NCBI GenBank assembly: GCA_903909815.1 | Contig: CAIVXG010000223.1 | Location: 3,488-35,487, forward strand | From: an uncultured beta proteobacterium | GTDB taxonomy: Bacteria; Pseudomonadota; Gammaproteobacteria; Burkholderiales; Burkholderiaceae_C | Length of the DNA: 32,000 nt | Direction: 5' to 3' | In this document: piece by piece, positions 549-29,395 of the stretch | Layout of the letters: every line of letters starts with the position of its first letter | Numbering within the stretch: the stretch's first letter is position 1 | Notes under the pieces: generated by a model | What the model was told of the DNA's origin: nothing | The model's database searches: none | Seen by the model: only the letters and a program-made list of their open reading frames with translations | Translations under genes and position numbers: made by a program

Positions 549-3005
549 TCAGGCGCTGTCGTGTGTTTTCTTCTCTACGGCCTTGGCCGGGTGATTGGGT
601 GTCGGACGCGTCCAAGTGGATAGCTTGCCTGCGAGCTCGCGGATTTCGCGCATCAGGAACATCATGGGCAACAGGCGCCAGGCGGCGACGGCCAGGGCCA
701 AGGCGATGGGCAGGTAGCGCAGGCTTGGGGGCAAGAACAGCGGCACAAACAATACGGCCAGCACCACAAAGATCGCGACATCGCGGCTCAGCCAACCCAC
801 ATTGCGGGCGCGGTGTTCGATCAATTGCTCCACCTTGCCCCGAAGCTGGGTCAACAACGCTTTGGCACGAGCTACCGACTTGCTCATCTGCTGCCAGGGC
901 AGGTCCGAACGGCCCGAGGCCACGATGCGTGCGACCAGATCGAAATAGCGTTCGATGCACGCGGCCAGGTCCGCGCCGCCGGATGGCGCGATCAAACTGG
1001 CGCGGCCCGCAGCTTGAATCTGGGCCAGCACGTTCTGGAACTCCAGGCCCATCGCCTTGCATTCGTCCGACAGAGTTTCCAGTGCGCGTGCTTTGGCCTG
1101 AAGCTGACGCTGCGCCAGCTTGCGCGCCTCGGGCAGCAGCGACTCCAACACCAGCAGGTCGGCGCTCGCCATGGATTGCGGGTCACCCAACTCGCCCAGC
1201 CAGGGGCAGTGCAGCGTGAGCGTTGTCAGGTCCGCGCTGAGGCGTGAACGCAGACGCTGCGCCCAGACCGCGTCGTAGGCAACGGCGAGCAAGCGCGCGT
1301 GCATGTTGGACAGCGCCGGCCGATCGGGATCGCTCTTTCCGTAGAGCAGTTGGTGCACATCGGGATAGTCGTTCTGGCTGGGCGTGGCCGCGGGCGCTTT
1401 CGCCTTGATGCGCGCCATTCCCTGCTCCCAGGCCTGATCCAACAGATCGGCCGCGTCGCCCCAACGCTGCACGATGTCGGCGCATTCTTCATTGCCGGCC
1501 TTCGCGTAGGCTTGCAGCACCCGATATTGGTGCAGTTGATGCAGCCAATGCCCGGCATCCACGTCGCCGTTCAAGGCCTCGTTGGCGTGCATCAGCACCG
1601 CGCGCAAACCCAGCGGCTCGCCACGCCACACCGCCGGGATGCCCGGCGCCAGCTGCAGGATCAAGTGCAGCAACTGCACATCCACCGGCATGCGACTGTC
1701 GTGGCGCAGCTCGAGCAACATGCGCACCACGTTTTGATCGACCTGTACCTCGCGAAACCAGGTTAGCAGCAGGCCGTTGCCGATGTCGGCCACACCCTCA
1801 GCCCAGTTGCGCGACAGCGCCACCGCGAGCTGCTCTGGGCTATAGCAAACCTCCTGACCCAGTCGATAGGCTTTTTCGAAACTGTGAACCACACCCTGTT
1901 CCAGTGGTTCGACCAAGCTGGGGTCGTTTGCCAGCCAGCGCGCAATTTCCCGCTCACTCCAGCGCTGCTTGGGGTCGCGCACCAACAGACCGCGCAGCAG
2001 CTTCTTGAAACTCCGATCCGGGACTTCGGCCAGGTCGATGCCACGCGTCGTCAGGTGGTGCAGTACCACCGGTTCCGAGAGTCCGGCAAACGGGTGTTTC
2101 CCCAAAATGGATTCCAGAATGATGATGCCCAGGGCCCAGTAATCGGCCTTGACGTCGATCACGCCCGACAGGCTCTCGGGCGAGGCATAGGGCAGGGTGC
2201 GCGCCGTGCCGGTGAAACGTTGCGTGGCTTCGAGCACGGAGGAAATGCCGAAATCGGTCAGCACCAACCCCAGTGGTTTCAGCGTGCGCACCAGGATGTT
2301 CTCGGGCTTGAGGTCGCGGTGCAGCAGACCCACTGCGTGCACGGCCACGATGGCCGCAGTCACCTGGCGCAGCACCTCCCGCAAGCCATCGCCGGCCAGG
2401 GGCCCGGCGCGCAACAAGTCGCGCAGCGAGCCGCTCTGGCAGTACTCCATCAACTCGTAGGCGTAACCCTGCGCCGTGCCGCTCTCCAGCACCCGTACGC
2501 AGCAGCTTGGGTCCACCCGCGCCATGCGCTGCAACACCTCGGCTCGGGGGTGCACGCCGTGGCGATAGATCTTGGCCACGAGCGTGGGTCCGCCGCCCAC
2601 GCTTTGCACCAGTAGCAGCTCCGCCTCGGCACCGGAAGTGGTTAGGGGCTGGAGGATGCGGTACTGATCTTTCAGTTTGCCCGGCAGGCTGATCAAACTC
2701 TGCAGCTGATCGCCGGACCCAGAGACTCGCGTCAACGGGCGGTCGCAGTAGAGGCAGGTTTTGGAGCCGGGTGGGTTGCTTTGGCCGCAGTCGTCATAGG
2801 CACAGATTGCCGGTAAGGCTGTAGCCAGCGTCGAGACATCAGCCTGGGATGTTGCAGCTGGGGCAATGGCGGCGGGTGCGACAGCGCTTGCCTGTCGGCT
2901 TACCAGGTCGACCCCGGCCAGCAAGGCACCGCAGGCGCAGCGCATGACCTGCGGCGTGTTCTCGGTTGCGCAACTTGGGCAAAGGCGATAGTAATCCGCG
3001 TTCAA
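549..3005 (-). CDS. Hanks-type Ser/Thr protein kinase with two N-terminal zinc ribbons, a large helical C-terminal region and a C-terminal TM hairpin (818 aa)
   Basis: Two zinc ribbons: CPSC...CACG and CAYDDCG...CLYC. Kinase motifs: VAKIY (Lys), HRDLKPENILV, DFG, YASPE. Two hydrophobic helices sit near the C terminus (VAIFVVLAVLFVPLFL, IALALAVAAWRLLPMMFL). TTG start at 3005 is preceded by GGAGG with a 9-nt spacer. The next in-frame Met would delete the first zinc ribbon. Confidence 0.85.
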   Translation of the reverse strand: MNADYYRLCPSCATENTPQVMRCACGALLAGVDLVSRQASAVAPAAIAPAATSQADVSTLATALPAICAYDDCGQSNPPGSKTCLYCDRPLTRVSGSGDQLQSLISLPGKLKDQYRILQPLTTSGAEAELLLVQSVGGGPTLVAKIYRHGVHPRAEVLQRMARVDPSCCVRVLESGTAQGYAYELMEYCQSGSLRDLLRAGPLAGDGLREVLRQVTAAIVAVHAVGLLHRDLKPENILVRTLKPLGLVLTDFGISSVLEATQRFTGTARTLPYASPESLSGVIDVKADYWALGIIILESILGKHPFAGLSEPVVLHHLTTRGIDLAEVPDRSFKKLLRGLLVRDPKQRWSEREIARWLANDPSLVEPLEQGVVHSFEKAYRLGQEVCYSPEQLAVALSRNWAEGVADIGNGLLLTWFREVQVDQNVVRMLLELRHDSRMPVDVQLLHLILQLAPGIPAVWRGEPLGLRAVLMHANEALNGDVDAGHWLHQLHQYRVLQAYAKAGNEECADIVQRWGDAADLLDQAWEQGMARIKAKAPAATPSQNDYPDVHQLLYGKSDPDRPALSNMHARLLAVAYDAVWAQRLRSRLSADLTTLTLHCPWLGELGDPQSMASADLLVLESLLPEARKLAQRQLQAKARALETLSDECKAMGLEFQNVLAQIQAAGRASLIAPSGGADLAACIERYFDLVARIVASGRSDLPWQQMSKSVARAKALLTQLRGKVEQLIEHRARNVGWLSRDVAIFVVLAVLFVPLFLPPSLRYLPIALALAVAAWRLLPMMFLMREIRELAGKLSTWTRPTPNHPAKAVEKKTHDSA

Positions 3006-3008
3006 CGA

Positions 3009-3665
3009 CTAAGGCCTCCAGGAGACTTGGCTGAACGCCAGCCCGCGTTCAGCACAGGACGCCTCCAGCGCTGCCATGTCGCCCCGCGCCGGAATCCCCA
3101 CGTACCAGACCCGGTTGCCGTCCACCATGGTCTGCATGCGCTTGTCCGACACCTGCGCCAGCGCGTCGACTTGGGTTGCGTATCTCTGGCGGCCAAGCTC
3201 GGACAACGGCAGCAGCGGCTGATTGGATGAACCGCGCCAGACGTGGGTGAGCGGTCGGGTCTGCACGAAGGGCTCGGGAATGAGCGCGTCAAGCTGCGCC
3301 AGCAGCGGTGCGTGTTTCTTTTGCAGCGCGGCCAGCGTGTAGCCGCTGTAGCACAAGATGTCGAAATCCAGTTTGACGCTGCGGCGCCATTGCGCCAATC
3401 CGGCCAGCAGCGCTGCCAGCGCCTGTGGTTGATCGAAGGGTTCGCCGCCCGTAATCGTCACGCCATCGAGCTTACCGCCGCAAGTCTCGCGGCACCAGGA
3501 CAGCAACTGCACAACGCTCATGTCGCGCCCCGGATCAACGCCCCAGGTGTCCTGCGAGACGCAGCCCTTGCAGCCGATGCTGCAGCCCTGAACCCAGATG
3601 CCGATGCGCCGTCCCGGCCCCAGCACCGTCACGGGAAAGTGCGCCTTGTTGATGGATATCTTCAT
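3009..3665 (-). CDS. NrdG-like radical SAM activating enzyme (4Fe-4S single-cluster domain protein), 218 aa
   Basis: N-terminal VLGPGRRIGIWVQGCSIGCKGCVSQDTW contains CX3CX2C in the NrdG/PflA-type context. GVTITGGEPFDQP is the GGE SAM motif. The ATG at 3665 overlaps the upstream stop as ATGA (3662-3665); the ORF track start at 3671 is a GTG. Confidence 0.8.
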   Translation of the reverse strand: MKISINKAHFPVTVLGPGRRIGIWVQGCSIGCKGCVSQDTWGVDPGRDMSVVQLLSWCRETCGGKLDGVTITGGEPFDQPQALAALLAGLAQWRRSVKLDFDILCYSGYTLAALQKKHAPLLAQLDALIPEPFVQTRPLTHVWRGSSNQPLLPLSELGRQRYATQVDALAQVSDKRMQTMVDGNRVWYVGIPARGDMAALEASCAERGLAFSQVSWRP

Positions 3666-5500
3666 GTGCACTGGAGGCGCAGCGTGATCACTTTTTCCAC
3701 ATCGGACAGACCGGTGATAGTCACCGTCTTGACGCCCTCCATCTCGGTCTCAAACAGCGCGCGCGACAGCGGGTTGATGAACACCGACTCCAGCTGGTTG
3801 CCGATGCCGCGCCCCCCTTGGTCCAGGTCGTGCGTGCAGCGCGCCAACAACGCCTGGCGAAACTCGGGTGAAAGAGAAAGTTCCACTTTGAATTCTTCGA
3901 GCAGGCGCCGCGCCACATTGCGCAGCATGCCCTCGAAGATGCGCTCGGCCACGTCGGTGGTGATGAAGTTGAAGACCACGATGTTGTCGCCGATGCGGTT
4001 CAGCAGTTCGGGCCGCGACAGCTTGAACTTGAAATAGTTGCCGATAGCGTCGCGCACCTTTGCTTCGACCGTTTCATAGGGGTCGCCGGGGCGCACGCTT
4101 TGCACGCGCTGGCCTTGCGCGTCTTCGACGTAGATGCCCAGATTCGACGTGAACACCAGGATCGTTTCGGAAAAATAGGCGGTGTCGCCGCGGCCGTCGG
4201 TGAGGCGGCCGTCTTCCAGAATCTGCAAAAACTTGTCCAGGATGCGCGGATGCGCCTTCTCGATCTCGTCGAACAGCACGACCGAAAACGGCTTCTCGCG
4301 CACCGCGTTCGTGAGCTCGCCGCCGGCGTCGAATCCGATGTAGCCGGGCGGCGCACCGAGCAGTCGCGCACTCGTGTGCTCCTCGGCGAATTCGCTCATG
4401 TCATAGCGCAGGTAGGCGCGCTCGTCGCCGAACACCAATTGCGTCAGCGTCTTGGCCAGCTCGGTCTTGCCCACGCCCGTGGGTCCGGCAAAGAACAGCA
4501 CGCCGCGCGGTCGGCTGCCGCCGGAGCGGGCTTGTGCGCCCGTGAGTCCCATCACGGAGCGCTTCAGAATGTCCAGCGTCTTGACCACGGCCGGGTGCTG
4601 ACCCTTGACGCGATCCTCGATGAAGGGCTGCGCATCGCGGATCTTCTGGCGCAGATAGTCCTTGCGCCAGGGGTTGTCCAGCGCACCGACCTTGTAGCAG
4701 CGCATCGCGTCGTCGATATGCTGGATGCCCAGATGTGCGCGATCCGCCAACTCGGTGATGTCGGAGAGCGCGGTCAGCGTCAGGCCTTCCGTGCCTTCGG
4801 TGAAATTCTTCACGAACTGCTCCCGCACCGGTTCGGCCGCTTCGGCGAAACCCTGAAACAGCGGCGCCAGTTGTGTCGCGGCGGCTTGCCGCGTTTCGAA
4901 ATCGGGTTTGCCTATGATCAGACTGGCGACGCGCTCGCTGTCCAGCGTGAACCACGAAGGCAGGTCCTGCGCGCGGTTTAGCAACCACAGCACCGGGTTG
5001 TATTGGGGTGAGCCGCCAGCCTCGCGCGGCACCATCGGGGCGGCATTCAGGGACAGCTTTTCGGCCGCAACAAAGAAGCGGTGTTCGGCCTCGCCCAGAT
5101 GTTCCACCTGGCGCGTCATGCGCGAGGCGAAGTCCAGCACCAGGGCGCATCGTGCCTCGCGCTGAGAGCTCAACTTCTTCATCACGCCGCTGAGCGTTTC
5201 CAGGCTCATCACCTGGCAGCCACCCGCCAGCTTGAGATCGAACAATCGCTCTGCCAGCTCCCGCGCCACGGGTTCGTCCGGGTAGACGCGCAGGCCATCG
5301 GCCGGGTCGAACACCAGGAAGAAACGGTAGTCGCGAACCTTCAGCGCTTCCCACAGCGCGCGCAGCAGCGGCACCAGCGCCGCACCGGTGGCCAGCGAAA
5401 CAAGAAAACTGTCGCGAATCGAGCCCGAGACCACAAACTGTGAGCGAATGGCGAGCAGGCGTTCCAGGTCGGCGAGCCAGCGGGGGGCGGGGATTTTCAT
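3662..5500 (-). CDS. Clp/Hsp100 D2-type AAA+ ATPase with a Walker-A-less N-terminal half (612 aa)
   Basis: GVLFFAGPTGVGKTELAK (Walker A), VVLFDEIEKAHP (Walker B), LVFTSNLG (sensor 1), and the ARLLGAPPGYIGFD signature typical of the ClpA/ClpB second tier. I chose the start at the ATG at 5500 (MKIPAPRW...) because it forms an ATGA overlap with the upstream stop. The 61 Arg/Ala-rich codons upstream in the ORF track look like a high-GC read-through artefact. Confidence 0.85.
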   Translation of the reverse strand: MKIPAPRWLADLERLLAIRSQFVVSGSIRDSFLVSLATGAALVPLLRALWEALKVRDYRFFLVFDPADGLRVYPDEPVARELAERLFDLKLAGGCQVMSLETLSGVMKKLSSQREARCALVLDFASRMTRQVEHLGEAEHRFFVAAEKLSLNAAPMVPREAGGSPQYNPVLWLLNRAQDLPSWFTLDSERVASLIIGKPDFETRQAAATQLAPLFQGFAEAAEPVREQFVKNFTEGTEGLTLTALSDITELADRAHLGIQHIDDAMRCYKVGALDNPWRKDYLRQKIRDAQPFIEDRVKGQHPAVVKTLDILKRSVMGLTGAQARSGGSRPRGVLFFAGPTGVGKTELAKTLTQLVFGDERAYLRYDMSEFAEEHTSARLLGAPPGYIGFDAGGELTNAVREKPFSVVLFDEIEKAHPRILDKFLQILEDGRLTDGRGDTAYFSETILVFTSNLGIYVEDAQGQRVQSVRPGDPYETVEAKVRDAIGNYFKFKLSRPELLNRIGDNIVVFNFITTDVAERIFEGMLRNVARRLLEEFKVELSLSPEFRQALLARCTHDLDQGGRGIGNQLESVFINPLSRALFETEMEGVKTVTITGLSDVEKVITLRLQCT

Positions 5501-6558
5501 TTGAGCTCGCGTTGTTGAAGTTGAGAACGTGATGCGGAGGCATCTTCGTCGGCGAAGCGCGGCAGTTTGTCGGCGTCGACGAGCTGCACCGGCAGCTCGC
5601 CCGCAGCGAGTCGGCGTGTCACGTCCAGATGCACCCCGCGCACTTCCAGCGCCTTGAGCAGCTCCGGGAACTCGGTGCACCACCGGTCCTCCGCCAGATG
5701 GTCGAGCACGCTGCGCTCGTTCTGACCCTGGCTCACGGCGCGAACCACGTTGAAGTTGACGGAACGGGTCTGCGCGTTCACCCGCATGCGCACCATGTAG
5801 TTGCCCCAGGATTGCCGGCGAAAATGCACCACACCGCCTTCGACGAAGAGCGTGCTACCGACCTCTTCCACCTGGTAGCCCAGGTCTTTGAGGGACTGCT
5901 CGACGATGGTGGCGGTGGCTCGTTGCACCTGCTGCTGTTGCAGGTCTTCGATGTGGGCCTGGATGCGGGAGCGCAGTTCCGTGGCGAGCAGCTCGGCGCG
6001 TTCACCCGGCAGCGTGCCGTCGAGTTCTTGCGCCACGCTCTGGATGTGTTGGGGAATGTCACCCAGTTCATGGATGCGCAGCAACAGCCGCTGCGCGAGT
6101 GAGCGCGGCGCCGCGTCGGGCACGGGTAGCTGGACCGCCTGCTCGGCAAACTGGTCGCTCTGGCGCGCGGCTTCAGTCAACAGAATCGCGCGCAGCTCGG
6201 CACTCAGTGCTTGCAGCGCCTGCACGTAAGCCACCAGCGCCTCGGTTTCCTCCGTGTCTGGCGGGGCCGGGCGAGTGGCGCGCACCTGCTCGGCGACGCC
6301 CAGGCGCTCAGCCAGGCCCTGGAGTTGATCGAAACCGACTTCCGCGCTCCTGGCCTCTTGCCCCAGCGCCGTGCGCCCCTGCAACTGCGCGGCGCTTTGC
6401 GCGGCGGTGCGGATTTCGTTCTGTTGCTGATGTTGCTCGTGTAAGGTGGCGGCATGGGCATAGCCCTGATACACCGCTTGCGCCGCGCGAATCGCTGCGG
6501 CAGAGAGCAGCGCAGCGATTGGGCTGGCCGTAATGACGACTGTGATGGGACCACTCAT
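5497..6558 (-). CDS. Hypothetical protein: N-terminal hydrophobic segment, long Q/A/E/L-rich coiled-coil region, C-terminal globular domain (353 aa)
   Basis: Long ORF with host-like codon composition. The ATG at 6558 (MSGPITVVITASPIAALL...) is the first start that does not overlap the divergent SRAP gene. The stop overlaps the AAA+ start. No recognisable catalytic motif and no obvious SD, so the start is uncertain (in-frame TTG at 6588). Confidence 0.6.
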   Translation of the reverse strand: MSGPITVVITASPIAALLSAAAIRAAQAVYQGYAHAATLHEQHQQQNEIRTAAQSAAQLQGRTALGQEARSAEVGFDQLQGLAERLGVAEQVRATRPAPPDTEETEALVAYVQALQALSAELRAILLTEAARQSDQFAEQAVQLPVPDAAPRSLAQRLLLRIHELGDIPQHIQSVAQELDGTLPGERAELLATELRSRIQAHIEDLQQQQVQRATATIVEQSLKDLGYQVEEVGSTLFVEGGVVHFRRQSWGNYMVRMRVNAQTRSVNFNVVRAVSQGQNERSVLDHLAEDRWCTEFPELLKALEVRGVHLDVTRRLAAGELPVQLVDADKLPRFADEDASASRSQLQQRELK

Positions 6559-6609
6559 GGGGCGAAGTATCGCAGGTAGATGCGCCAATGTTTGAGTAAG
6601 ATTCCATCC

Positions 6610-7248
6610 ATGTGCTCTCACTACCAGGCCCTCAAACTTTACGAACTGGGTTGGAAACGCTTTGGCGTGGCGGCGCCGGCGGCGCTTGTGAGGGCCGAGC
6701 TCTGGCCTGGCTACGTGGGCGCCTTCGTGCGCAGACATGCCCACGCCGACCTTGGCGATGCCGCAGTCCCCGAGCGCGAGGTCCTGGCCGGCGTGTTCGG
6801 ATTGCTGCCGCGCTGGTCCAAGGACCTGAAGTTGGCGCGACACACGTTCAACGCCAGGTCGGAAACGGTATCCGAGAAACCCAGCTTTCGGGACGCCTGG
6901 CGCAAGGGTCAGCGCTGCATCATCCCCGCTCAGGCGATATACGAACCCGACTGGCGTACCGGCAAGGCGGTGCCGACACGGATCTCGCGCGCTGATGGCG
7001 CACCCATGGGGCTGGCGGGCTTGTGGGACTGGTCAGCGCTGGGAGGCGGGACACTCAGCTACACCATGCTCACGATCAACGCCGACGAGCATCCCTTCAT
7101 GAATCAGTTTCACAGGCCGCAGGAGGAAAAACGGTCCGTGGTCATCCTGCCCGATGCCGCTTACGCCGACTGGCTTGATGCCGCGGTCGCAGATCAGGGC
7201 GGCCTTTTGCAACTTTACCCGGCGCATGCATTGACGGCATCGACCTAG
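6610..7248 (+). CDS. SOS-response-associated peptidase (SRAP/YedK-type abasic-site processing protein), 212 aa
   Basis: Start set at MCSHYQ... so that the catalytic Cys is residue 2, as in the SRAP family. NARSETVSEKPSFRDAWRKGQRCIIPA parallels YedK NARVETAATSRMFKPLWQHGRAICFA. A conserved H..R.P motif (FHRPQEEKRSVVIL) lies in the C-terminal third. Confidence 0.8.
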   Translation: MCSHYQALKLYELGWKRFGVAAPAALVRAELWPGYVGAFVRRHAHADLGDAAVPEREVLAGVFGLLPRWSKDLKLARHTFNARSETVSEKPSFRDAWRKGQRCIIPAQAIYEPDWRTGKAVPTRISRADGAPMGLAGLWDWSALGGGTLSYTMLTINADEHPFMNQFHRPQEEKRSVVILPDAAYADWLDAAVADQGGLLQLYPAHALTAST

Positions 7249-7496
7249 GTCGTTCAGGCGGTTGCGCCCACAATACAGACCCGCTGCGGATGCCCGAACT
7301 GGAACGGGAGTGGCAATGACCCGGCATCGGGAGTTCGTCAGAATTCCTGAGCACACTGGAATGCCCCCCGCTGAACTACCGACATAAGTAGCTCAGACTT
7401 GCTAACCCCGATGGGGGAAGGGAGATGCCATAACTCCCGCAAAGTGCGCTATGGTGTATCCATGTCGGAAACGTTTCGGTTCGTGGGACCTTGCAT

Positions 7497-9227
7497 ATGA
7501 AATTACGCCATCGAATTTACTTCATCATTGCTTCTGCACTCATCGGCATCGTGCTGACCAGTGCGTTTGGCTTATATGCCCTGCGTCAGAATCTCTATGA
7601 GGGCCGCCAAGAAGAGATACATAAGGTGGCGCTCTTAAGTCGCGGCGTGCTCGAACGTTACCAGCAACTGGAGGTCAGCGGCAAGCTCAGCCGAGAGGAA
7701 GCACAAAGCCAAGCAAAGGACGCGCTGTCGGGTCTGCGCCATGACGACGACTACATCTTTGTCAGGACCATGGACAATCAGATGCTGGTCCATGCGGACC
7801 AAAGCCGCATTGGAAAGGTCGACAAGGGCTCAAAGACGGCTGATGGGCGGATGACGTCCGACATTTATGCGGATGAACTCGCAAAATCCGATCGCGTCTT
7901 CATGATTGCTTATGTTGCCCGCCCAGGCGACGCGGCCAAGACGCCTGTACCTAAACTGCTAGGCGCGATTCGATTTGAACCTTGGAACTGGGTCGTCGGA
8001 AATGGCGTATTTATTGACGATCTTGATGCGGCGTTTATCTCGTACGCCTACAAGTACCTTGTTCTTGGTGGCGGGATATTGATTCTCATGGGCGCGTTGG
8101 GGGCGCTGCTCTTTCGCTCTATACAACGGCAATTGGGCGGAGAGCCGCAGTACGCCTCGGACGTGGTCAATTTGATCGCGTCCGGCGACCTGAGTATGGC
8201 CATCGAAGTCACTGGTCCTTCAACCAGCCTTCTCGCTTCCATGGAGAGCATGAGGGCCAGTCTGTCCGATGTGGTTGGCAAGGTTCGACAGGGGTCGCAA
8301 GGCGTTGCTACCGCGAGCGCCGAAATTGCCCAGGGTAACCATGACCTGAGTGCCCGCACAGAGAGTCAGGCCAGTGCACTGGAACAGACGGCCTCTTCGA
8401 TGGAGGAACTGTCCGCAACCGTGAAGCACAACGCGGATAGCGCCCGTCAGGCCAACCAACTGGCAATGAGTGCCTCCACCGTGGCGATGCAGGGTGGCCA
8501 GGTAGTGGGGCAGGTAGTCGCTACCATGAAGGGCATCAGCGAGTCGAGCAGAAGAATCTCCGACATCATCAGCGTCATTGACGGAATTGCATTTCAGACG
8601 AACATTCTGGCACTGAATGCGGCTGTTGAAGCCGCGCGCGCCGGCGAACAAGGGCGTGGCTTTGCCGTGGTGGCGTCCGAGGTCCGATCATTGGCTGGGC
8701 GAAGCGCCGAAGCTGCCAAGGAAATCAAGACTTTGATTAACGCCAGTGTGGAGCGTGTTGAGCAAGGTGCCACTTTGGTCGACCAGGCAGGCACGACAAT
8801 GGCCGCGGTAGTCAGTTCCATCAAACGCGTGACTGACTTGATGGGTGAAATCAGTGCCGCCAGCAGCGAGCAGGCCGCAGGTATGTCCCAGGTGGGAGAA
8901 GCCGTACATCAGATGGACCAGGTCACACAGCAAAATGCCGCGCTGGTCGAGGAGATGGCTGCAGCAGCGAGCAGCCTCAATTTGCAAGCTCAAGAGCTAG
9001 TCGGCACGGTGGCCGTATTCAAACTGGTTCAGGGTAAAGACGGATATGCGCGCACAAGCCATCATGCTGCCGCTCCTGTGCGCCACAGCCCTATTTCGCA
9101 AAGCGCCCCAACAAGGAAAGCGGGACCCAAGTTCAACCCCAATGCGAAGTCCACAGCCTTGAGTGCACCCAAGGTTGTAAAAGACGCGACGACAAAGTCG
9201 GACGGCGATGATTGGGAGAGTTTCTGA
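7497..9227 (+). CDS. Methyl-accepting chemotaxis protein (N-terminal TM, Cache-like periplasmic domain, HAMP, MA domain, C-terminal DWESF pentapeptide), 576 aa
   Basis: Signalling hairpin [37 protein letters not shown]. Methylation-helix heptads. Second [22 protein letters not shown] followed by a HAMP-like segment. ATG at 7497; the ORF track start at 7491 is a TTG. Confidence 0.9.
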
Positions 9228-9539
9228 CTGCTCACGGTTTCTCTTTGGGCCAAAGCAAGGAATCGCGACGCAAACTGGTCTTCCTGGTGCCGGCACACGT
9301 GATCGGCTGGAACTACTGCACTTGAGCCCGCCAGTTAAAAAAATGGCGGTGTTGTCGGGCGAACGACTGCTGCCAAGTTCCAGGGATCGCCGACTGCCAA
9401 AACCGGGCAGCCCTGCCAATAACTGCTGTGGAGAACGTGGCAGATGTTTCTGGGTTGCATCGAATGTCTCTTACGTTGCACTGGAGGCGGTAGCGGTCAG
9501 TGCAGGGGCATTACCGCATGGGCCGCAACATGCTTCATC

Positions 9540-9572
9540 AAAAAAATGCCTGCTAGCAATTAAGTAGCAGGC
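9540..9572 (-). terminator. Rho-independent terminator, probably the native tRNA-Lys terminator displaced by island insertion
   Basis: Stem gcctgcta (9548-9555) / tagcaggc (9565-9572) with a 9-nt loop. A seven-A run on the plus strand at 9540-9546 gives a U-tract on the minus strand. It lies 26 nt downstream of the tRNA 3' remnant. Confidence 0.55.
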
Positions 9573-9597
9573 TTCCTAGTTCCCATGGGGCTTGTGG

Positions 9598-9642
9598 TGG
9601 TTGGTCCTGACAGATTCGAACTGTCGACCTACGGATTAAGAG
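9598..9642 (-). repeat. Displaced 3' portion of tRNA-Lys (anticodon loop to CCA); left att repeat of the island
   Basis: 9603-9642 is identical over 40 nt to 15826-15865. The match extends to 9596/15819 with one mismatch (9602 T vs 15825 G), which would put A instead of C at acceptor position 72. Confidence 0.85.
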
Positions 9643-9913
9643 AAAAGATAATAACAAAATAACGTTTAAAAACAACAAGTTACATAACATCGTATTCGAT
9701 GTGTAGCAAAATGTGTAAGCAAAATGAAAAAATAGCTGCACGCGTAGCGCTAAATCGCCCACCATATCTTCCACGACTGTCTGCACGAATTTAGCACGCC
9801 TGTAGCTCAGCCGAATTCAGTTCATTTACGTGCAAGAAATTCGATCAATTTCTCGCACGTAACCGCACCCTTTCGTCCATCGTCGTCCTCTCTCTGCAAA
9901 CAGCACGAAAAAT

Positions 9914-10165
9914 TTACACGTATGGCTTTATCGTTGTTCCAGCAGCAGTCTTGCGTATCTGCGCCATTTTCTGTCTCGACTGCCGCATCTTTAGCTGCTC
10001 TGCATTTGTGTCCGCTTGTGCTTTCATCTGCTTTGCACGGTTCTTTGCCGCTTTAGCGTTGTCCTTTAAGCGTTTCACACGCTGCTCAGCAGCACCAAAA
10101 TTCTGTATCTCTTCAAGTGTCATATTGGCCCCCATAAACTTATATTTATCGGGGCCGTTTGTCAC
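9914..10165 (-). CDS. Small basic K/A/Q-rich coiled-coil protein (up to 83 aa; start uncertain)
   Basis: The GTG at 10165 overlaps the upstream stop (GTGA). Alternative ATGs lie at 10135 and 10123, the latter preceded by GGGGG. No recognisable domain. Confidence 0.5.
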   Translation of the reverse strand: MTNGPDKYKFMGANMTLEEIQNFGAAEQRVKRLKDNAKAAKNRAKQMKAQADTNAEQLKMRQSRQKMAQIRKTAAGTTIKPYV

Positions 10166-10608
10166 TTTTTCTTCTTAGCAAAGCCCGCACGCAATGCACC
10201 GCTGGCCTGCTCAATCTGTGCATCAAGTTCACCAGCAAGCACCGCTTCCTTTACAACTTCAAGCGTTGCTACAAGATCATCCATTCCGCTCAGCTCCACT
10301 GCATTCTTGCCCTTAGAAATTTCAATCGTCTTTGCTCCATAACGCAGCGCAAGAACAGTTTTTCCATTTGCCTGTGTAAACCACCACGGTTTAACTCTCT
10401 TGGCCTGTTCTACCTGCTTGCGCTCCCCAGTCTCTTTATTGGTAACAAATTTCACCCTTTTTCCTGCATAAATCACACCAGCGTTAGCTGCTTTCGCAAA
10501 CGCAATCTGGGTCTCAATATGCGCAGTCAGCTTGTTTCTACGCAGAACCTCGGGAGATTTCCGGTCAGCTTGCACGCTCACTAGCTTTAGTTTCAAAAGT
10601 GCTGTCAT
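10162..10608 (-). CDS. Hypothetical island protein (148 aa from ATG 10608; 150 aa from ATG 10614)
   Basis: Clean ORF in AT-rich DNA. GGAG lies 8 nt upstream of ATG 10608 but only 2 nt from 10614. Sequence MTALLKLKLVSVQ...KPWWFTQANGKTVLALRYG...; family not recognised with confidence. Confidence 0.7.
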   Translation of the reverse strand: MTALLKLKLVSVQADRKSPEVLRRNKLTAHIETQIAFAKAANAGVIYAGKRVKFVTNKETGERKQVEQAKRVKPWWFTQANGKTVLALRYGAKTIEISKGKNAVELSGMDDLVATLEVVKEAVLAGELDAQIEQASGALRAGFAKKKK

Positions 10609-10693
10609 TTTCATTGCTCCTAAGTTGATAGCAATGCAAGTATGTAGTCACTTTAACAAGTTGTCTACCGAATAACAGTATTTTTGGGGAATT

Positions 10694-11272
10694 TTGTGGA
10701 AAAGCATAAATACCTTTATGCAATCCACATTTTCTCTACAATCTAGCGCAATAACTAACTTTTTGCAGCAGCACAGCGAACACGTCACGAATTTAGCTGT
10801 AGCACACACTTGCTACAAGACTTACGAGCAAGATAAGGCCGGTATGCAGCACATCGTTGCACGTGCAAAGCGTGACTGCACAATATTCCGAAACAATCTA
10901 AACACTAAGCTTTACGGTGGCAACAAAAGTCGTCGCAGGCCGTTACTTTATCAGCCGCTAATACTTGCAACACTAGAAGGATCGTTAGTCAATACTGATC
11001 GCGATTTAACGCTGCACTATAACTTTGCAATCGGTAACTTGCCGAAAGGACTTGCAGACGCAGAATTTCAGTGCATTTTTAGGGAGTGTTGGGTTGTAAA
11101 CGCAAAGCAGCGCGACAACATCTGGCACGAAAATGTTGCTGGAGATAGTGAAGCTGCAAAAGGCTGGATTGGTTACAGCTTAAAAGAAATGCAGAGCAAG
11201 GGCAACATTGAGGCCTGGGACTTTGTAAACACACAGATTCCGTATCAAGCATTTAGTGCAGACTTAAGTTAG
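10694..11272 (+). CDS. Hypothetical island protein (192 aa from TTG 10694; 184 aa from ATG 10718)
   Basis: Only long ORF in this AT-rich stretch. Cys/His/Trp-containing globular composition. No confident motif. Confidence 0.6.
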   Translation: MWKSINTFMQSTFSLQSSAITNFLQQHSEHVTNLAVAHTCYKTYEQDKAGMQHIVARAKRDCTIFRNNLNTKLYGGNKSRRRPLLYQPLILATLEGSLVNTDRDLTLHYNFAIGNLPKGLADAEFQCIFRECWVVNAKQRDNIWHENVAGDSEAAKGWIGYSLKEMQSKGNIEAWDFVNTQIPYQAFSADLS

Positions 11273-11615
11273 CACTGAATTGGGGTCTGAAGGCTGCGCT
11301 ATACGGATAGCGTAGTCCCGGCAGCTATGGTGAAACAATTGTGTAGAAGAGCTAGATGTTCCCTAGAAAGCAACACAAAGCCCAGCAACGCGCGAACAAG
11401 ACGACGCGAATGCTTGGGTGGCTGAAGGGATAAAAACGCTTAGACAGAGGTAAGAAGTTGGCCTCTTATACACCAAATTTAGAGTAACTGAATAAAAATT
11501 AATAAAGATTGTCAAAAAGATTGATATAGTATTTTTGAGCATCGCGAATCGAGGCCGAGGGACGGTGCTTCTACAGCAGAGTGTTTCCATCAACCGCACA
11601 ATTTTAGGACTCTTA

Positions 11616-12284
11616 ATGAAAACTTTATCACTAAGCGCAATTTTACTTGTTACAGCATCTCTTGTGGCATGTGGCGGGGGAGGTGGCGGAACGACAGCAG
11701 TAATTCCGACTTACTCAGCGGATGCTGCAACTACAAAACTATTGGCAGCTGGTGGCACTTTTACTGCGACTGCTGTAAGCGGAAGTGACACTTATACCTT
11801 GTCATTGTCGACAACGCCAGACGCGGATGCGACATTTGGAGGCACGACACGCAAAAAATCAACACAATCACTTACCATCAAGAAAAATGGTGTGCTTGCT
11901 GGAGTTAGCACATATGACAGTTACTACAGCGTAAATCCGTTAGTATCCTATGGGGCAGTCTTTTCGGATGGTACATACGGCGTTAGCACTGGTAGTTACG
12001 TAACACCAACTGCGGCAAAGGTTGGTGATTCCGGGGCAGCTGGAACGCAGGTAATATATACAAACTCTACTCTGGCCAGCATATTGTCAACTCAGACATC
12101 GACTTGGACAATGGAAGCTGATACTGCTACGACAGCGTTTTATTGCCTGAACAGTGTTATAAAAAATGCCTCAAATATCCAAACAAGCACTGGGTCTACT
12201 TGCTTTAAAATTGATTCAGGAAACAACGCAATAGGTTTACGAATTACCATTACAGTTTCAGGAACAACGCTGGTTTTTAGCTAA
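11616..12284 (+). CDS. Lipoprotein, Thr/Ser/Gly/Ala-rich, probably beta-rich (222 aa)
   Basis: MKTLSLSAILLVTASLVAC is a signal peptide with lipobox L-V-A-C, followed by a GGGGGG linker. AGGA lies 6 nt upstream of ATG 11616. The ORF track start at 11535 adds a non-signal leader. Confidence 0.8.
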   Translation: MKTLSLSAILLVTASLVACGGGGGGTTAVIPTYSADAATTKLLAAGGTFTATAVSGSDTYTLSLSTTPDADATFGGTTRKKSTQSLTIKKNGVLAGVSTYDSYYSVNPLVSYGAVFSDGTYGVSTGSYVTPTAAKVGDSGAAGTQVIYTNSTLASILSTQTSTWTMEADTATTAFYCLNSVIKNASNIQTSTGSTCFKIDSGNNAIGLRITITVSGTTLVFS

Positions 12285-12344
12285 ATTTTATCCTTAACGT
12301 ATTTGTTTCTTAGCTTGCTTGATAGGAAACTAAAGAAAATACAC

Positions 12345-12380
12345 AAGAGTCAACATCTGCGCTGCAAGCTGTTGACTCTT
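12345..12380 (+). terminator. Perfect 11-bp stem hairpin downstream of the lipoprotein gene (no U-tract)
   Basis: aagagtcaaca (12345-12355) / tgttgactctt (12370-12380) with a 14-nt loop, 60 nt after the stop at 12284. The following sequence is not T-rich, so intrinsic-terminator function is uncertain. Confidence 0.4.
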
Positions 12381-12484
12381 ATAGAAACCCGATAAACTGC
12401 CTGGACGATTTTTAGCGGTTGCTCTGACCATACATAAGAAAGCACACTGTAGATGTGTTTTTATTACATTATGGGAGAGCGAAA

Positions 12485-13057
12485 ATGAGTCAAGCTAAAA
12501 CGCTAACGGCGCAAGAACTGCGCAGGGTGCTGGACTACGTAGCAACGCGCAAGCACGCAGCGCGTAACAGGGCTATGCTGCTTGCTACGCACTTATCGGG
12601 GATGCGCGTAGGGGAGGTTGCAGCACTACGCATAAGCGACGTTCTTGATGCTGATGGGGGCATACGCAACGAAATACGTTTGGAAGCGGAACAGACAAAG
12701 GGCAGCAGCGGACGCGTTGTTTTTGTTAGCGAAAAACTGCGGAAAGAGCTTGCGAAATATCTTGCACTTTACTGCCCGGAAAATCACGAAGGCAAACTGT
12801 TTTACACGCAAAAACGTATGCGTGATGGATTTTCAGCCAACACGCTTTGCCAATTCTTCCATCATCTTTACAACGCAGTGGGAATTGCTGGCGCGAGCAG
12901 TCACAGCGGACGTAGGTCGTTTATAACAAATCTTGCCAGCAAAGGCGTTGGCGTGCGCGTGTTGATGGCTTTGGCGGGACATAAAAGCATCTCGACAACG
13001 CAAATCTACATCGACTGCAACGACAACCAGAAGCGTGCAGCGATTGAACTGATCTGA
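12485..13057 (+). CDS. Small catalytic-domain-only tyrosine recombinase, FimB/FimE-sized (190 aa)
   Basis: LTAQELRRVL...HAARNRAMLLATHLSGMRVGEVAALRISDV (Arg I region). SHSGRRSF (H-x-x-R). GHKSISTTQIY (His and the Tyr nucleophile). GGGAGAG lies 5 nt upstream of ATG 12485. Confidence 0.85.
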   Translation: MSQAKTLTAQELRRVLDYVATRKHAARNRAMLLATHLSGMRVGEVAALRISDVLDADGGIRNEIRLEAEQTKGSSGRVVFVSEKLRKELAKYLALYCPENHEGKLFYTQKRMRDGFSANTLCQFFHHLYNAVGIAGASSHSGRRSFITNLASKGVGVRVLMALAGHKSISTTQIYIDCNDNQKRAAIELI

Positions 13058-13059
13058 CG

Positions 13060-13311
13060 CTAAGACTTTTTAGGGCCTTGCTTGGTTGCAGCATTTTTTG
13101 CAGTTACTTTTACTGCAGCGGATGTGGCAGCTTTAGGGGTGCGCTTTTTTCTAGCCTTGATGACACTTTTTAGCTCAGTCTGAGTAAAACCGTATTCTTT
13201 AATCTGCGCTCTTACATCAGCTAGCGCAGTAGCACGACCAGTCTTTAACTCCTGTTTTAGTGCCTGTTCAAGCTTTGCAATTTGTTCCCGATACTCAGTA
13301 ACTTTGCTCAT
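13060..13311 (-). CDS. Truncated H-NS-like protein: H-NS-type N-terminal oligomerisation region plus a K/A-rich basic tail (83-84 aa)
   Basis: The pattern Y.EQIAKLEQALKQE...ALADVRAQIKEYGFTQTEL matches the N-terminal half of betaproteobacterial H-NS-like proteins as I recall them. The canonical C-terminal TW[ST]GRG DNA-binding motif is absent, replaced by KARKKRTPKAATSAAVKVTAKNAATKQGPKKS. AGGAG lies 6 nt upstream of ATG 13311 (3 nt from 13314). Confidence 0.55.
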   Translation of the reverse strand: MSKVTEYREQIAKLEQALKQELKTGRATALADVRAQIKEYGFTQTELKSVIKARKKRTPKAATSAAVKVTAKNAATKQGPKKS

Positions 13312-13344
13312 CATGGTCTCCTTTTTTGTTTGTATGAACGCGTG

Positions 13345-13373
13345 ATTTTTTCATATACATAGCGCGGTGTCAA
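13345..13373 (-). promoter_or_regulatory. Candidate sigma70 promoter of the H-NS-like gene
   Basis: The minus strand reads TTGACA (13373-13368), then a 17-nt spacer containing TGa (extended -10), then AAAAAT (13350-13345). It sits about 30 nt upstream of the start codon. Confidence 0.45.
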
Positions 13374-13383
13374 ATTTCCAGTC

Positions 13384-13453
13384 GACCGACCAAATCGAAT
13401 TTGGTTTGGTGGTTTGGTCGGTGGTTTGGTAGATTGAGCGGTAACTTGGTGGT
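13384..13453. repeat. Cluster of GGTTTGGT direct repeats with nested palindromes (iteron/operator-like)
   Basis: GGTTTGGT at 13403-13410, 13411-13418 and 13423-13430, with a degenerate copy at 13444-13453. Palindrome ccaaat-cga-atttgg at 13390-13404. gaccgaccaaa (13384-13394) is the inverted complement of tttggtcggt (13413-13422). Confidence 0.6.
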
Positions 13454-13561
13454 GTTGCACAGTTGAAGTGCAGGGTAAACGCGTGCTGGCACATGCTGGC
13501 GCTGTTTTACGCTAGACGAAAATAAAACGTGCTTAAACAGCACTAATAAGTTACGTCTGCA

Positions 13562-14215
13562 TCAGCGCCGTTTCTTCAACCAAGTTCGTAGCTTCATTGC
13601 AGTTTCAATAGCTGCCGCATCTTCTGCAGCATCAGCGGCAATCACCGGTTTAAGTGCTTCCAGTGCCATCTCAAGAGCCTCTTGTTTTATCGACCGCTTT
13701 GTCTGCAGTAGCTGCAACATTCCAGCACTTTGTTTGTCCATACTTCTGCTCGTAATAACTAACGGCATCGTCATCGGACCCGGGCCTAATTCGCTGCCAG
13801 CATCAAAGTCAAGTGGACGATCAAACCAGATGTGCAAATAACTGTCCATACTTGCCATTTCTTCAAGCCTCAGCAATGCCTTTTCAAATGCCGTGTCAGC
13901 CTTGTCACTCAATTTCTTTGCTACTCTCACGCCATCCTTTCCGCGCACTCCAGATCGTCTAAAACTACCGCTATATCCTTCCATTTTGTTGTAGATAAAC
14001 TGCGCCTTATGTAGTAACTCTTCATACTCAATTACTGCGCTAGGCTTGTCTTTAAAATACGCGCGTTGCTCAACCTGATCTTTCCAGCTACGTTGCATAT
14101 TTTCAAACTCTGCCGTAGTCAGTGCAGCCTTAATGTCTCGCAACGCAACATCTTTGCCGCTTTCAATAACACCAATCAATTCAGCAAGCCGTGTCTTTCG
14201 CTTTTCTTCTCGCAT
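13562..14215 (-). CDS. Hypothetical island protein immediately downstream of the integrase (217 aa)
   Basis: GAGG lies 7 nt upstream of ATG 14215, 51 nt after the integrase stop on the same strand. Charged helical composition. No recognisable motif. Confidence 0.7.
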   Translation of the reverse strand: MREEKRKTRLAELIGVIESGKDVALRDIKAALTTAEFENMQRSWKDQVEQRAYFKDKPSAVIEYEELLHKAQFIYNKMEGYSGSFRRSGVRGKDGVRVAKKLSDKADTAFEKALLRLEEMASMDSYLHIWFDRPLDFDAGSELGPGPMTMPLVITSRSMDKQSAGMLQLLQTKRSIKQEALEMALEALKPVIAADAAEDAAAIETAMKLRTWLKKRR

Positions 14216-14266
14216 ACGTAAACCTCGTTAAGTCAGTTTGCAAGTGCCGAAATATCATACACCATT

Positions 14267-15697: not shown

Positions 15698-15753
15698 TCG
15701 CACAATGTAAGCTCAATTGCAAGATGCTGCAATCTCTGTGCAAGCGGTGTGCA

Positions 15754-15786
15754 AACAAAAAAAGCAAGCACTTGTTAGTGCCTGCT
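15754..15786 (-). terminator. Island-borne terminator downstream of the reconstituted tRNA-Lys
   Basis: On the minus strand, stem agcaggcac / gtgcttgct (one G:U pair) with a 6-nt loop, followed by TTTTTTTGTTT. Confidence 0.5.
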
Positions 15787-15820
15787 TTCCTTGTAAGCGT
15801 TGCTACGCTTGCTTATGGGG

Positions 15821-15896
15821 TGGTGGGTCCTGACAGATTCGAACTGTCGACCTACGGATTAAGAGTCCGCTGCTCTACCAACTGAGCTAAGAACCC
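15821..15896 (-). tRNA. tRNA-Lys, anticodon CUU, CCA encoded (76 nt)
   Basis: The reverse complement reads GGGTTCTTAGCTCAGTTGGTAGAGCAGCGGACTCTTAATCCGTAGGTCGACAGTTCGAATCTGTCAGGACCCACCA. It folds with a 7-bp acceptor stem, D arm, anticodon stem GCGGA/TCCGT with loop CT-CTT-AA, and T arm GACAG/CTGTC with loop TTCGAAT. Confidence 0.9.
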
Positions 15897-15906
15897 ACAG
15901 AGCCGA

Positions 15907-27989: not shown

Positions 27990-28029
27990 CTTTTACATTA
28001 ATGTCGGCGTCGACACAGGAGATAAAAAC

Positions 28030-29385: not shown

Positions 29386-29395
29386 CTTCCTCGTC

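Follow-up and report, generated by a model that had tools for sequence, protein, structure and literature searches.

A kinase, AAA+ and radical-SAM cassette from an uncultured beta proteobacterium as a possible variant of a widespread unnamed conflict system

The stretch of DNA analysed here (the window; 32,000 nucleotides of contig CAIVXG010000223.1, GenBank assembly GCA_903909815.1, positions 3,488 to 35,487) comes from an uncultured beta proteobacterium. At 549-6558 it carries a minus-strand cassette of four co-directional open reading frames (ORFs) that, as read from the sequence, encode a coiled-coil protein (gene 1, whose product starts with the residues MSGP), an AAA+ ATPase, a radical S-adenosylmethionine (rSAM) enzyme and a Ser/Thr kinase. 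We estimate at about 0.5 the probability that this cassette is the type A variant of a widespread and unnamed multi-component conflict system, most likely directed against phages or mobile elements. Judged by domain content and alignment, the conserved core of the system comprises a Hanks-type kinase or pseudokinase linked to zinc ribbons, an AAA+ unfoldase of the hexameric type with a dead first ATPase domain (D1) and an active second one (D2), an rSAM enzyme resembling the activases of glycyl-radical enzymes (GREs) and the MSGP coiled-coil protein. By the same comparison, the regulators (PP2C phosphatase, FHA) and the outputs (transmembrane segments, helicase-restriction endonuclease, CHAT protease) vary by lineage. 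The coupling of a GRE-activase-type rSAM to an AAA+ unfoldase and an MSGP protein under Ser/Thr-kinase control is apparently undescribed. We favor the conflict-system reading because swappable effectors, decay of a kinase to a pseudokinase, plasmid and insertion sequence (IS) contexts and a patchy phylogeny are the usual signature of such systems.

Organization of the cassette

The genes and the elements between and beside them are as follows (aa, amino acids; nt, nucleotides).

5497-6558, minus strand: gene 1, 353 aa, ATG at 6558, stop codon TGA at 5497
3662-5500, minus strand: AAA+ protein, 612 aa
3009-3665, minus strand: rSAM protein, 218 aa
549-3005, minus strand: kinase, 818 aa, TTG start at 3005
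3015-3019, minus strand: GGAGG Shine-Dalgarno sequence for the kinase, 9 nt upstream of its TTG start and still inside the rSAM gene, at the 3' end
6559-6609, no strand assigned: short spacer that separates gene 1 from a divergent gene for a SOS-response-associated peptidase (SRAP), the presumed site of the cassette promoter

An earlier note on this DNA had described four co-directional minus-strand genes with essentially no gaps, and a base-by-base reading bore out the ORFs and each of their junctions. The TGA of gene 1 and the ATG of the AAA+ gene overlap as ATGA (5497-5500), as do the TGA of the AAA+ gene and the ATG of the rSAM gene (3662-3665), while the kinase TTG comes 3 nt after the rSAM stop codon TAG (3009-3011), with the GGAGG in place. 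Identical 4-nt overlaps are kept in distant relatives (loci L005, L091, L020 and L031), and because they recur there we regard the cassette as one translationally coupled operon and not as a product of chance. In one type A relative (L090, 11187-13019) an opposite-strand gene for a methyl-accepting chemotaxis protein lies between the AAA+ and rSAM genes, so the operon tolerates interruption there. A scan for the sigma-70 consensus found no site in 6559-6609, and a promoter and terminator consensus scan inside the cassette returned nothing exceeding shuffled expectation.

Recurrence of the cassette across phyla

A 45-sequence alignment of diverse rSAM family members (A1) was used to scan one genome per GTDB species, and every ORF of the 80 loci returned was searched with the window proteins split into domains. 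At 26 of the 27 loci with an rSAM identity of 35-71% (L005-L031), the same two-domain AAA+ protein and/or a kinase was found within 8 kb; the sole locus with neither, L030, reaches a contig edge. Weaker rSAM relatives (L036, L039, L044 and L048) were also linked to the AAA+ protein. The linked loci span at least 7 phyla. The carriers include Undibacterium, Azonexus, Gallionella and Comamonadaceae among the Betaproteobacteria, Pseudomonas, Competibacteraceae and Methylococcaceae among the Gammaproteobacteria, Bradyrhizobium among the Alphaproteobacteria and Aquimarina among the Bacteroidota. Actinomycetota are represented by Streptomyces, Spirillospora, Nonomuraea, Luedemannella, Pseudonocardia, Solirubrobacterales and Gaiellales; further carriers belong to Acidobacteriota and Verrucomicrobiota and, with weaker rSAM similarity, to Clostridium, a Bacilli metagenome-assembled genome and Zixiibacteriota. 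Flanking genes vary between cassette loci, including the chromosomal contexts of type A loci. Synteny confined to close relatives, which the earlier note had named as grounds for dropping its proposal, is thus not what was found: the set of AAA+, rSAM, kinase and MSGP genes recurs across phyla with differing flanks.

The loci fall into four arrangements. Type A, the form in the window and in Beta- and Gammaproteobacteria, has the order gene 1, AAA+, rSAM and zinc-ribbon kinase with a transmembrane hairpin. In type B the order is AAA+, rSAM, a protein of ~2100 aa and a gene 1-like protein, and the hosts are Pseudomonas, Bradyrhizobium, Aquimarina, Competibacteraceae and megaplasmids of Rhizobium and Caballeronia (loci L020, with the giant gene at 8660-14968, L022, L024, L031 and L085). 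The giant protein carries the same two zinc ribbons, a kinase-like domain, DUF4011, a superfamily 1 (SF1) helicase (AAA_11/AAA_12) and an MTES_1575 restriction endonuclease (REase). Its kinase-like domain has Thr at the position of the catalytic Lys, and the DFG Asp is changed to Gly or Ser in L020, L022 and L031 (three of the four proteins aligned), the Aquimarina protein of L024 keeping the Asp (DFS). Since both the catalytic Lys and the DFG Asp are lost in these three, the type B domain is predicted to be a pseudokinase. The helicase-REase part matches PDC-S37 in PADLOC (4.8e-148) and also Hhe and MkoA, and some PDC-S37 calls may be fragments of the larger type B system. One type B copy is located on a conjugative Rhizobium plasmid beside IS21, where RefSeq gives its products the generic names 'AAA family ATPase', '4Fe-4S single cluster domain-containing protein', 'AAA domain-containing protein' and 'hypothetical protein'.

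Type C, found in Actinomycetota and Acidobacteriota, has the order gene 1-like, AAA+, rSAM, zinc-ribbon-FHA, PP2C and kinase, with the zinc ribbon on the separate FHA protein and not on the kinase. The earlier note had stressed that a phosphatase or FHA partner was lacking. This holds for the window, where no GRE, phosphatase or FHA gene was present among the ORFs examined, but not for the family, as PP2C and FHA proteins are present in the type C relatives. In type D (Streptomyces, Kitasatospora, Luedemannella) the set is extended by a CHAT protease of 900-1160 aa and, at one locus, also by Hsp70.

The N-termini of the following type C kinases contain low-complexity T-x-x-[D/E] repeats (TRRD, TVRE, TRHE, PPTR).

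L013, 9989-12238: type C kinase with repeats
L014, 9992-13027: type C kinase with repeats
L015, 2209-4656: type C kinase with repeats
L028, 9163-11574: type C kinase with repeats

By their composition, these repeats look like a phospho-Thr docking array for the FHA protein, which suggests that the zinc ribbon is joined to the kinase by a covalent link in types A and B and via phospho-Thr/FHA in type C.

Around the cassettes, the neighbouring genes include those for an LmuB-like SMC ATPase and an MkoA/C-like helicase. In a Methylococcaceae locus (L001) gene 1 has a flavodoxin gene (9321-9857) immediately upstream; GRE activases are usually reduced by flavodoxin. The same locus has a PP2C gene homologous to the type C phosphatases ~7 kb upstream (2361-3176), and its gene 1 and AAA+ gene are set apart by a Laminin_G_3 gene and a small ORF.

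At 28-35% identity, rSAM relatives from Bacteroidota and other phyla belong to a different conserved trio: an rSAM of ~195 aa, a coiled-coil protein of ~500 aa starting with MS and a giant ATPase that contains three AAA domains of the classical type (PF00004). This trio, seen also in L035 and L047, is apparently another rSAM-AAA+ system that is as yet undescribed.

L032, 7947-13990: triple-AAA trio
L043, 7956-13217: triple-AAA trio
L033, 7971-13346: triple-AAA trio

Two cyanobacterial plasmids carry further relatives. On plasmid pCAL6303.02 of Calothrix PCC 6303 (L087, 4388-15909), the order is Hsp70, a 1316-aa TPR protein, rSAM, an 'MSGEK...' protein and an 848-aa AAA ATPase. Plasmid pGM01 of Geminocystis NIES-3708 (L086, 1-20624) has a related rSAM and five hypothetical genes in an island that also holds genes for an anti-phage dCTP deaminase, a dGTPase, the BrnT and HigB toxins, HNH and DUF1156.

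A GRE-activase-like radical-SAM enzyme paired with an ATPase

3009-3665, minus strand: rSAM protein, consisting of an NrdG/PflA-like core and a C-terminal extension of ~65 aa ending in SW (Pfam, NCBIfam, alignment A1)

The rSAM protein matches Pfam Fer4_12 (2.8e-26), and its match to the NCBIfam NrdG model (TIGR02491) spans the whole 154-residue model with 85.6 bits versus an equivalog cut-off of 126.1. Its motifs are a GPGxR loop, a QGC followed by C28-x3-C32-x2-C35, DTW and GGEP. Across the 45 diverse family members of alignment A1, residues C28/C32/C35, G16/G18/R20 and G73-G74-E75-P76 show no or almost no variation, and PflA-AE from the PDB (3c8f) aligns with residues 13-81. The enzyme shares with the GRE activases (NrdG, PflA/PFL-AE; COG0602/COG1180, Fer4_12 plus Radical_SAM) a small partial-TIM-barrel core, CX3CX2C, GPGxR and GGEP, but it scores below the equivalog cut-offs, has the additional C-terminus and has an AAA+ partner instead of a GRE neighbour.

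An exhaustive HMMER scan of 1.84 billion representative proteins returned 168 clusters (50% identity) at E<=1e-30, and because nearly all of these are ~215 aa in length and match end to end, the family is classified by its sequence as a distinct clade and not as a stray NrdG. The earlier note had called the enzyme an NrdG-type rSAM without a partner. The motifs are present as said, and no NRDD, PFL or Gly_radical family was found among the 106 neighbour proteins of 26 cassette loci; a genuine NrdG from the same scan (L060), which served as a positive control, adjoins NRDD (E 4e-190). With no such genes among these neighbours, local loss of an nrdD or pfl partner, the alternative raised at the time, is not indicated. 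The 886 phage matches represent NrdG beside NrdD and cover only the first ~67% of the rSAM query. Automatic annotation at the Joint Genome Institute (JGI) labels family members 'anaerobic ribonucleoside-triphosphate reductase activating protein'. Of two unusual family members, P0369 is an apparent fusion of the AAA+ C-terminus with the rSAM that looks like read-through of the ATGA overlap, and P0252 is a possible rSAM fusion with 355 extra aa.

Since the enzyme is derived from protein-radical activases, has no GRE partner and is always paired with some class of protein-remodelling ATPase, it probably acts, by homology, on a protein substrate. Judged by genus (Streptomyces, Pseudomonas, Bradyrhizobium, Undibacterium), its hosts are presumably mostly aerobes.

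An AAA+ protein with one intact ATPase domain

4541-5500, minus strand: N-terminal 320 aa of the AAA+ protein, a degenerate D1-like module without Walker A (fold prediction and Foldseek)
3662-4540, minus strand: C-terminal half, a D2 of ClpB/ClpA/ClpV type with D2-small (Pfam, NCBIfam, motifs)

Pfam assigns residues 331-595 to AAA_2 (1.3e-46) and ClpB_D2-small (5.6e-06), and the motifs of D2 are intact in the translation (Walker A GPTGVGKT, Walker B VVLFDEIEKA, pore loop GAPPGYIGF). It detects no Clp_N in the protein and no family in the N-terminal 320 aa. The NCBIfam ClpB model gives 252 bits (model positions 559-844) versus a cut-off of 1232, about a fifth, while TssH (212 bits versus 885) and ClpA (208 bits versus 993) are matched at model D2 positions only. 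The AlphaFold2 (AF2) model of the N-terminal 320 aa is confident (predicted local distance difference test, pLDDT, 86.8) and has an AAA+ fold, for which Foldseek retrieved p97 D1/D2, Rubisco activase, Vps4, FtsH and Hsp104 from the PDB (E ~1e-5, probability 1.0). At the P-loop position D1 reads VVSGSIRDSF, which is no P-loop, and a Walker-B-like LVLDFASR is kept; D123, A125 and R127 are invariant in an alignment of this domain (A3). Because it combines an AAA+ fold with the lack of a P-loop, D1 is predicted to be a catalytically dead pseudo-ATPase. Separate queries with the N- and C-terminal domains showed that the D1-like and D2 domains co-occur at all cassette loci with the AAA+ protein; a query with the N-terminal domain only against a large protein database returned mostly gene fragments and was used as an alignment and not as a census.

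Of the two-tier Clp-like AAA+ protein that had been proposed from the sequence, the two AAA+ folds and the intact D2 stand, but the first tier is degenerate. Class I Hsp100 proteins require two ATP-binding tiers; here D2 only is intact. The similarity to ClpB, ClpA and ClpV (TssH) is restricted to a D2 with Walker A/B and a GYxG pore loop and to D2-small, whereas an N-domain, an M-domain and a ClpP loop are absent, D1 has no P-loop and the scores are below the curated cut-offs. Membership of the ClpB/ClpA/ClpV group was considered and rejected on these grounds (dead D1, no N- or M-domain, a score about a fifth of the cut-off). In PADLOC, DolB of Dodola and PDC-M37B match the AAA core at residues 335-454, ~120 residues only.

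Gene 1 as the signature partner

5497-6558, minus strand: gene 1 product, with an MSGP start, a coiled coil at residues ~13-225 and a C-terminal alpha/beta domain at ~226-330

No Pfam, NCBIfam or PADLOC model matches gene 1, and its homologues, at least 501 in number, are all annotated 'hypothetical'. The earlier description as a coiled-coil protein agrees with the AF2 model (pLDDT 78), in which helices at 13-225 form a coiled coil that is followed by a small alpha/beta domain. A Foldseek search with the full model found no fold match in the PDB (best E 0.18) or BFVD (0.05), a search in which the helices may mask the C-terminal domain.

The N-terminus is the most recognizable part of the protein. 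M1-S2-G3-P4 is invariant in 42 type A homologues (alignment A2), and although proteins of types A-C are only 15-25% identical, the MSGP start is present in 12 of the 16 aligned (MSGPK in type B; alignment A4), together with invariant positions in the C-terminal domain (G227-Y228, D286, C294 in a W-C pair, and G320). When all 1.3 Mb of fetched DNA was searched for MSGP with at least 150 open codons after it, matches came from 21 loci and the window, each at the beginning of the cassette coiled-coil gene; they include two Firmicutes proteins (L036 and L039, starting with MSGPK) undetected by phmmer. The one stray match was internal to the kinase ORF of a cassette locus (L028), and none occurred in the non-cassette loci. 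As the MSGP start marks cassette loci even where the proteins are this divergent, we consider gene 1, on the strength of its N-terminal motif, the specific signature partner of the cassette. A tblastn search of gene 1 against plasmids gave no match.

The radical glycine of PFL, NrdD and GrcA is found 25-31 residues before the C-terminus, and a catalytic Cys acts together with it. G320 of gene 1 is located 33 residues before the C-terminus in the sole low-confidence loop of the C-terminal domain (317-320) of the AF2 model. We take this parallel to the GRE glycine as a lead and not as a test, and regard G320, C294 and G3 as candidate sites of modification by the rSAM.

A zinc-ribbon kinase with a predicted membrane hairpin

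2736-2981, minus strand: two zinc ribbons at the N-terminus of the kinase, C9-x2-C12...C23-x-C25 and C68/C73...C84-x2-C87
1896-2675, minus strand: Hanks-type Ser/Thr kinase domain, residues ~111-370 (Pfam Pkinase 2.3e-32)
786-1895, minus strand: helical region, residues ~371-740, ~370 aa, specific to proteobacterial type A cassettes
651-782, minus strand: two adjacent hydrophobic segments, residues ~742-785 (Kyte-Doolittle peaks 2.48 and 2.01)

The fourth protein had been described as a membrane Ser/Thr kinase with zinc ribbons, and each of these parts was recovered. The two ribbons (CPSC...CAC and C..C...CLYC) are of the Cys4 type and are conserved in type A and B proteins. The kinase domain scores 112.9 bits against Pkinase (PF00069), well above the gathering score of 31.7, and an alignment across variants shows that its catalytic motifs are intact in the window (the Lys of VAKIY, HRDLKPEN, DFG and SPE). 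From their hydropathy, the two C-terminal segments are predicted to form a membrane hairpin. The helical region between them and the kinase domain matches no Pfam family, and the C-terminal 448 aa found nothing at E<=1 among PDB sequences; homology to this part is seen in type A loci and, as one marginal match (6e-04), in the type B locus L024. The kinase domain bears a weak resemblance to those of LanL and LanKC (NCBIfam). In PADLOC the matches to mad6 (1e-35), PD-T4-6 (1e-32) and MkoA (6e-22) involve the kinase domain only.

Comparison with named systems

Scans of all four proteins with Pfam, NCBIfam and PADLOC gave generic domain matches only, and full-text literature searches, whose coverage leaves out most subscription journals, found no publication describing the gene set. 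This agrees with the initial impression that the cassette corresponds to no named system. Assignment to a system of PADLOC-DB v2 (Dodola, PDC-M37, MADS, Mokosh, PD-T4-6 or BREX) was rejected, the matches being at the level of domains, with gene 1 and the rSAM matching no model; in the PADLOC scan, equivalents of DolA, PDC-M37A, mad1-5/7, MkoB and PglX/Z were absent from the cassette. Thus, the AAA core resembles DolB and PDC-M37B without a DolA or PDC-M37A partner. With Stk2, PD-T4-6, MADS mad6, Mokosh MkoA and BREX PglW the cassette shares a Hanks kinase, to which its relatives add PP2C and FHA or a helicase-nuclease like those of Mokosh, Hhe and PDC-S37. The PpkA/PppA/Fha1/ClpV pathway of the type VI secretion system (T6SS) is similar in that its protein classes are present across the cassette variants; PP2C and FHA, however, are found in the relatives only, and no T6SS families occur among the top families of the neighbours or the window ORFs examined. 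None of these kinase-containing systems has the rSAM, the two-domain AAA+ protein or the MSGP protein, and the window contains no methyltransferase (as in MADS and BREX), no PLD partner (as in Mokosh) and no T6SS genes.

The cassette shares its architectural logic with the chaperone-thresholded 'NTP-dependent conflict systems' described in 2020 by Kaur, Burroughs, Iyer and Aravind (PMC7159879), in which an NTPase chaperone core and a co-factor are combined with swappable effectors (CHAT, REase, transmembrane segments, pseudokinases, Hsp70, TPR). The same paper notes modules of a kinase with a zinc ribbon or transmembrane segment and PP2C, and one rSAM effector (PMC7159879). Their cores, however, are MoxR-vWA or GTPases, and no ClpB-D2-type AAA+, GRE-activase-like rSAM or MSGP protein is described there.

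Prokaryotic viperins, Ophion (OpnA) and HXS (HxsB/C) are anti-phage systems in which an rSAM is essential, and the likeness is one of radical chemistry only. The viperin and Ophion enzymes belong to the nucleotide-modifying viperin clade and have PHP or PRTase partners, and none of the three is NrdG/PflA-like or AAA+-linked, unlike the cassette. The HXS maturases belong to the His-Xaa-Ser system and are reportedly SPASM-type enzymes that act on HxS-repeat peptides. HXS is also an example of rSAM maturases of protein effectors in defence (PMC13128918). As a working definition of the new family we propose a ~215-aa GRE-activase-like rSAM, an AAA+ protein with a dead D1 and a ClpB-type D2, an MSGP coiled-coil protein and a kinase or pseudokinase, each of which is present in the window.

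Weighing of the explanations

The earlier note had suggested a sensor-transducer-effector module for conflict or for an envelope or DNA-stress response, and the variants with PP2C and FHA, with a helicase-REase or with CHAT, and the plasmid and defence-island locations, strengthen the conflict reading; the immune role itself is something we infer. Several observations weigh against it. The G+C content of the cassette is host-like, as the note had also said (63-65% versus 60-66% in the core-gene part of the window), and the cassette sits among core genes. In the window variant no enzyme stands out as a killing effector, the 106 neighbour proteins include defence proteins only here and there, and the ORFs of the adjacent low-G+C island gave no PADLOC match beyond a marginal one to AbiEi on an integrase. 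One 80%-identical relative has a CoA-transferase flank in common with the window, the other flank not being shared. Among the best 120 rSAM matches, type A identity is 67-89%, and conservation of this strength looks more like that of a vertically kept cellular function than that of a fast-evolving defence gene. For gene 1, the context of G320 (RRLAAGELPVQ) does not fit the canonical glycyl-radical motif RVxG[FWY], and hhalign gave no significant match (probability <=10%) between its C-terminal domain and the coiled-coil proteins that accompany the triple-AAA, Hsp70 and Firmicutes systems, although the alignments were consistent in topology.

Much of this fits a non-immune module for stress signalling or proteostasis, in which the membrane kinase regulates the ClpB-like ATPase and an rSAM acting on the coiled-coil protein in an envelope, oxidative or developmental response. 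The host-like composition, the core-gene surroundings (pyruvate dehydrogenase operon, dihydroorotate dehydrogenase, M3 peptidase), the conservation across Burkholderiales genera, the retained CoA-transferase flank and the fact that no mobile element touches the cassette all favor it, and kinase/PP2C/FHA triads are classic housekeeping regulators in Actinomycetota. However, such a module accounts poorly for the patchy occurrence across unrelated phyla with differing flanks, for the copies on plasmids and beside IS elements, for variable parts that are typical conflict effectors (CHAT and a helicase-REase of PDC-S37/Hhe/MkoA type) and for the decay of the kinase to a pseudokinase in type B; we consider it doubtful, albeit the main rival. 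An analogue of the T6SS threonine-phosphorylation pathway, with kinase, PP2C, FHA and a ClpV-like AAA+ controlling a gene 1 polymer and the rSAM as an accessory maturase, could draw on the presence of all four PpkA/PppA/Fha1/ClpV classes across the variants, the 212 bits of TssH on D2 and the long coiled coil of gene 1. It seems improbable, as no T6SS or other secretion structural genes are found in the window or among the 106 neighbours, the AAA+ protein lacks the ClpV N-domain and an active D1, and the obligatory rSAM and the nuclease and protease variants are left unexplained.

More improbable still is a protein-maturation cluster akin to those of RiPPs (peptides made by the ribosome and modified after translation), in which gene 1 would be a precursor whose terminal peptide is phosphorylated, radical-modified and released. 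The weak LanL/LanKC likeness of the kinase domain and the invariant N-terminal MSGP of type A gene 1 are compatible with it, as is the precedent of rSAM maturases of protein effectors in defence, such as HXS (PMC13128918). Yet the cassette is not accompanied by a conserved protease, transporter or cyclase, a gene 1 product of 350-450 aa with a conserved folded C-terminal domain is unlike a precursor peptide, and the rSAM is of the GRE-activase and not the SPASM/twitch type. That the rSAM is a decayed NrdG/PflA activase, left behind after loss of its GRE and fortuitously placed beside unrelated genes, is effectively refuted. Its best named matches are indeed NrdG (85.6 bits) and PflA, in line with the JGI label, but it scores below the NrdG cut-off, has its own conserved 65-aa extension and invariant residues and is kept in linkage with AAA+ and kinase across phyla with overlapping reading frames, while no NRDD or PFL is near any cassette and true NrdG genes adjoin NRDD.

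Proposed mechanism and implications

Under the conflict-system reading, we hypothesize that the membrane-anchored kinase would sense a trigger via its zinc ribbons or helical region and phosphorylate a core component. Phosphorylation would license the AAA+ motor to engage and remodel the gene 1 protein, probably from its conserved N-terminus, and the remodelled protein would become the substrate of the rSAM, with H-atom abstraction from backbone or side chain at G320/C294 or G3. The radical modification, or cleavage, would then turn on the output, which might be the membrane-inserted kinase/gene 1 pair in the window and the helicase-nuclease or CHAT protease elsewhere. Activated PFL suffers backbone cleavage in air. 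A bolder proposal, and to our mind an unlikely one, is that this amounts to a new immune principle with the rSAM as executioner or trigger: the AAA+ protein would thread the MSGP protein into the rSAM on a kinase signal, a glycyl or thiyl radical would form at the invariant Gly/Cys, and quenching by O2, in hosts that seem to be aerobic, would cleave the backbone, convert the scaffold irreversibly and release or activate the membrane, nuclease or protease output, in a superfamily of protein-radical switches that would also cover the triple-AAA and Hsp70-linked relatives.

Should the cassette prove to be a defence or conflict system, it would add a component class to bacterial immunity, a protein-directed rSAM of GRE-activase lineage coupled to an unfoldase. 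For enzymologists it offers an orphan rSAM clade of at least 168 clusters at 50% identity with the MSGP protein as candidate substrate. In the family, the zinc-ribbon kinase/PP2C/FHA logic known from T6SS and from regulation in actinobacteria is linked to nuclease, protease and membrane outputs that can be exchanged, and even if non-immune, a cross-phylum pairing of an AAA+ protein with a GRE-type activase would point to undescribed post-translational radical chemistry on folded proteins.

Surroundings of the cassette in the window

The SRAP/YedK-type gene (6580-7248, plus strand, with an MCSHYQ start at ~6610) is divergent from gene 1, with ~50 bp between the start codons. It is not kept beside the cassette in other loci and so may be just a local neighbour, although the two genes might share a regulatory region. 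A gene for a Cache-domain chemoreceptor follows it (7491-9227).

The low-G+C island mentioned above (9300-15900; 42-51% versus ~63%) adjoins a tRNA-Lys(CTT) gene at 15821-15896 and is probably an integrated element. It contains a truncated phage-type integrase gene (12455-13057), a DUF6641 gene and ORFs without a family (478, 217, 249 and 192 aa). The region 22488-31351 is core chromosome, with genes for a FixL-like PAS histidine kinase, pyruvate dehydrogenase E1, a presumed E2, E3 (Lpd), an M3 oligopeptidase and dihydroorotate dehydrogenase; these core genes, the pyruvate dehydrogenase complex included, indicate an aerobic host of the Burkholderiales type.

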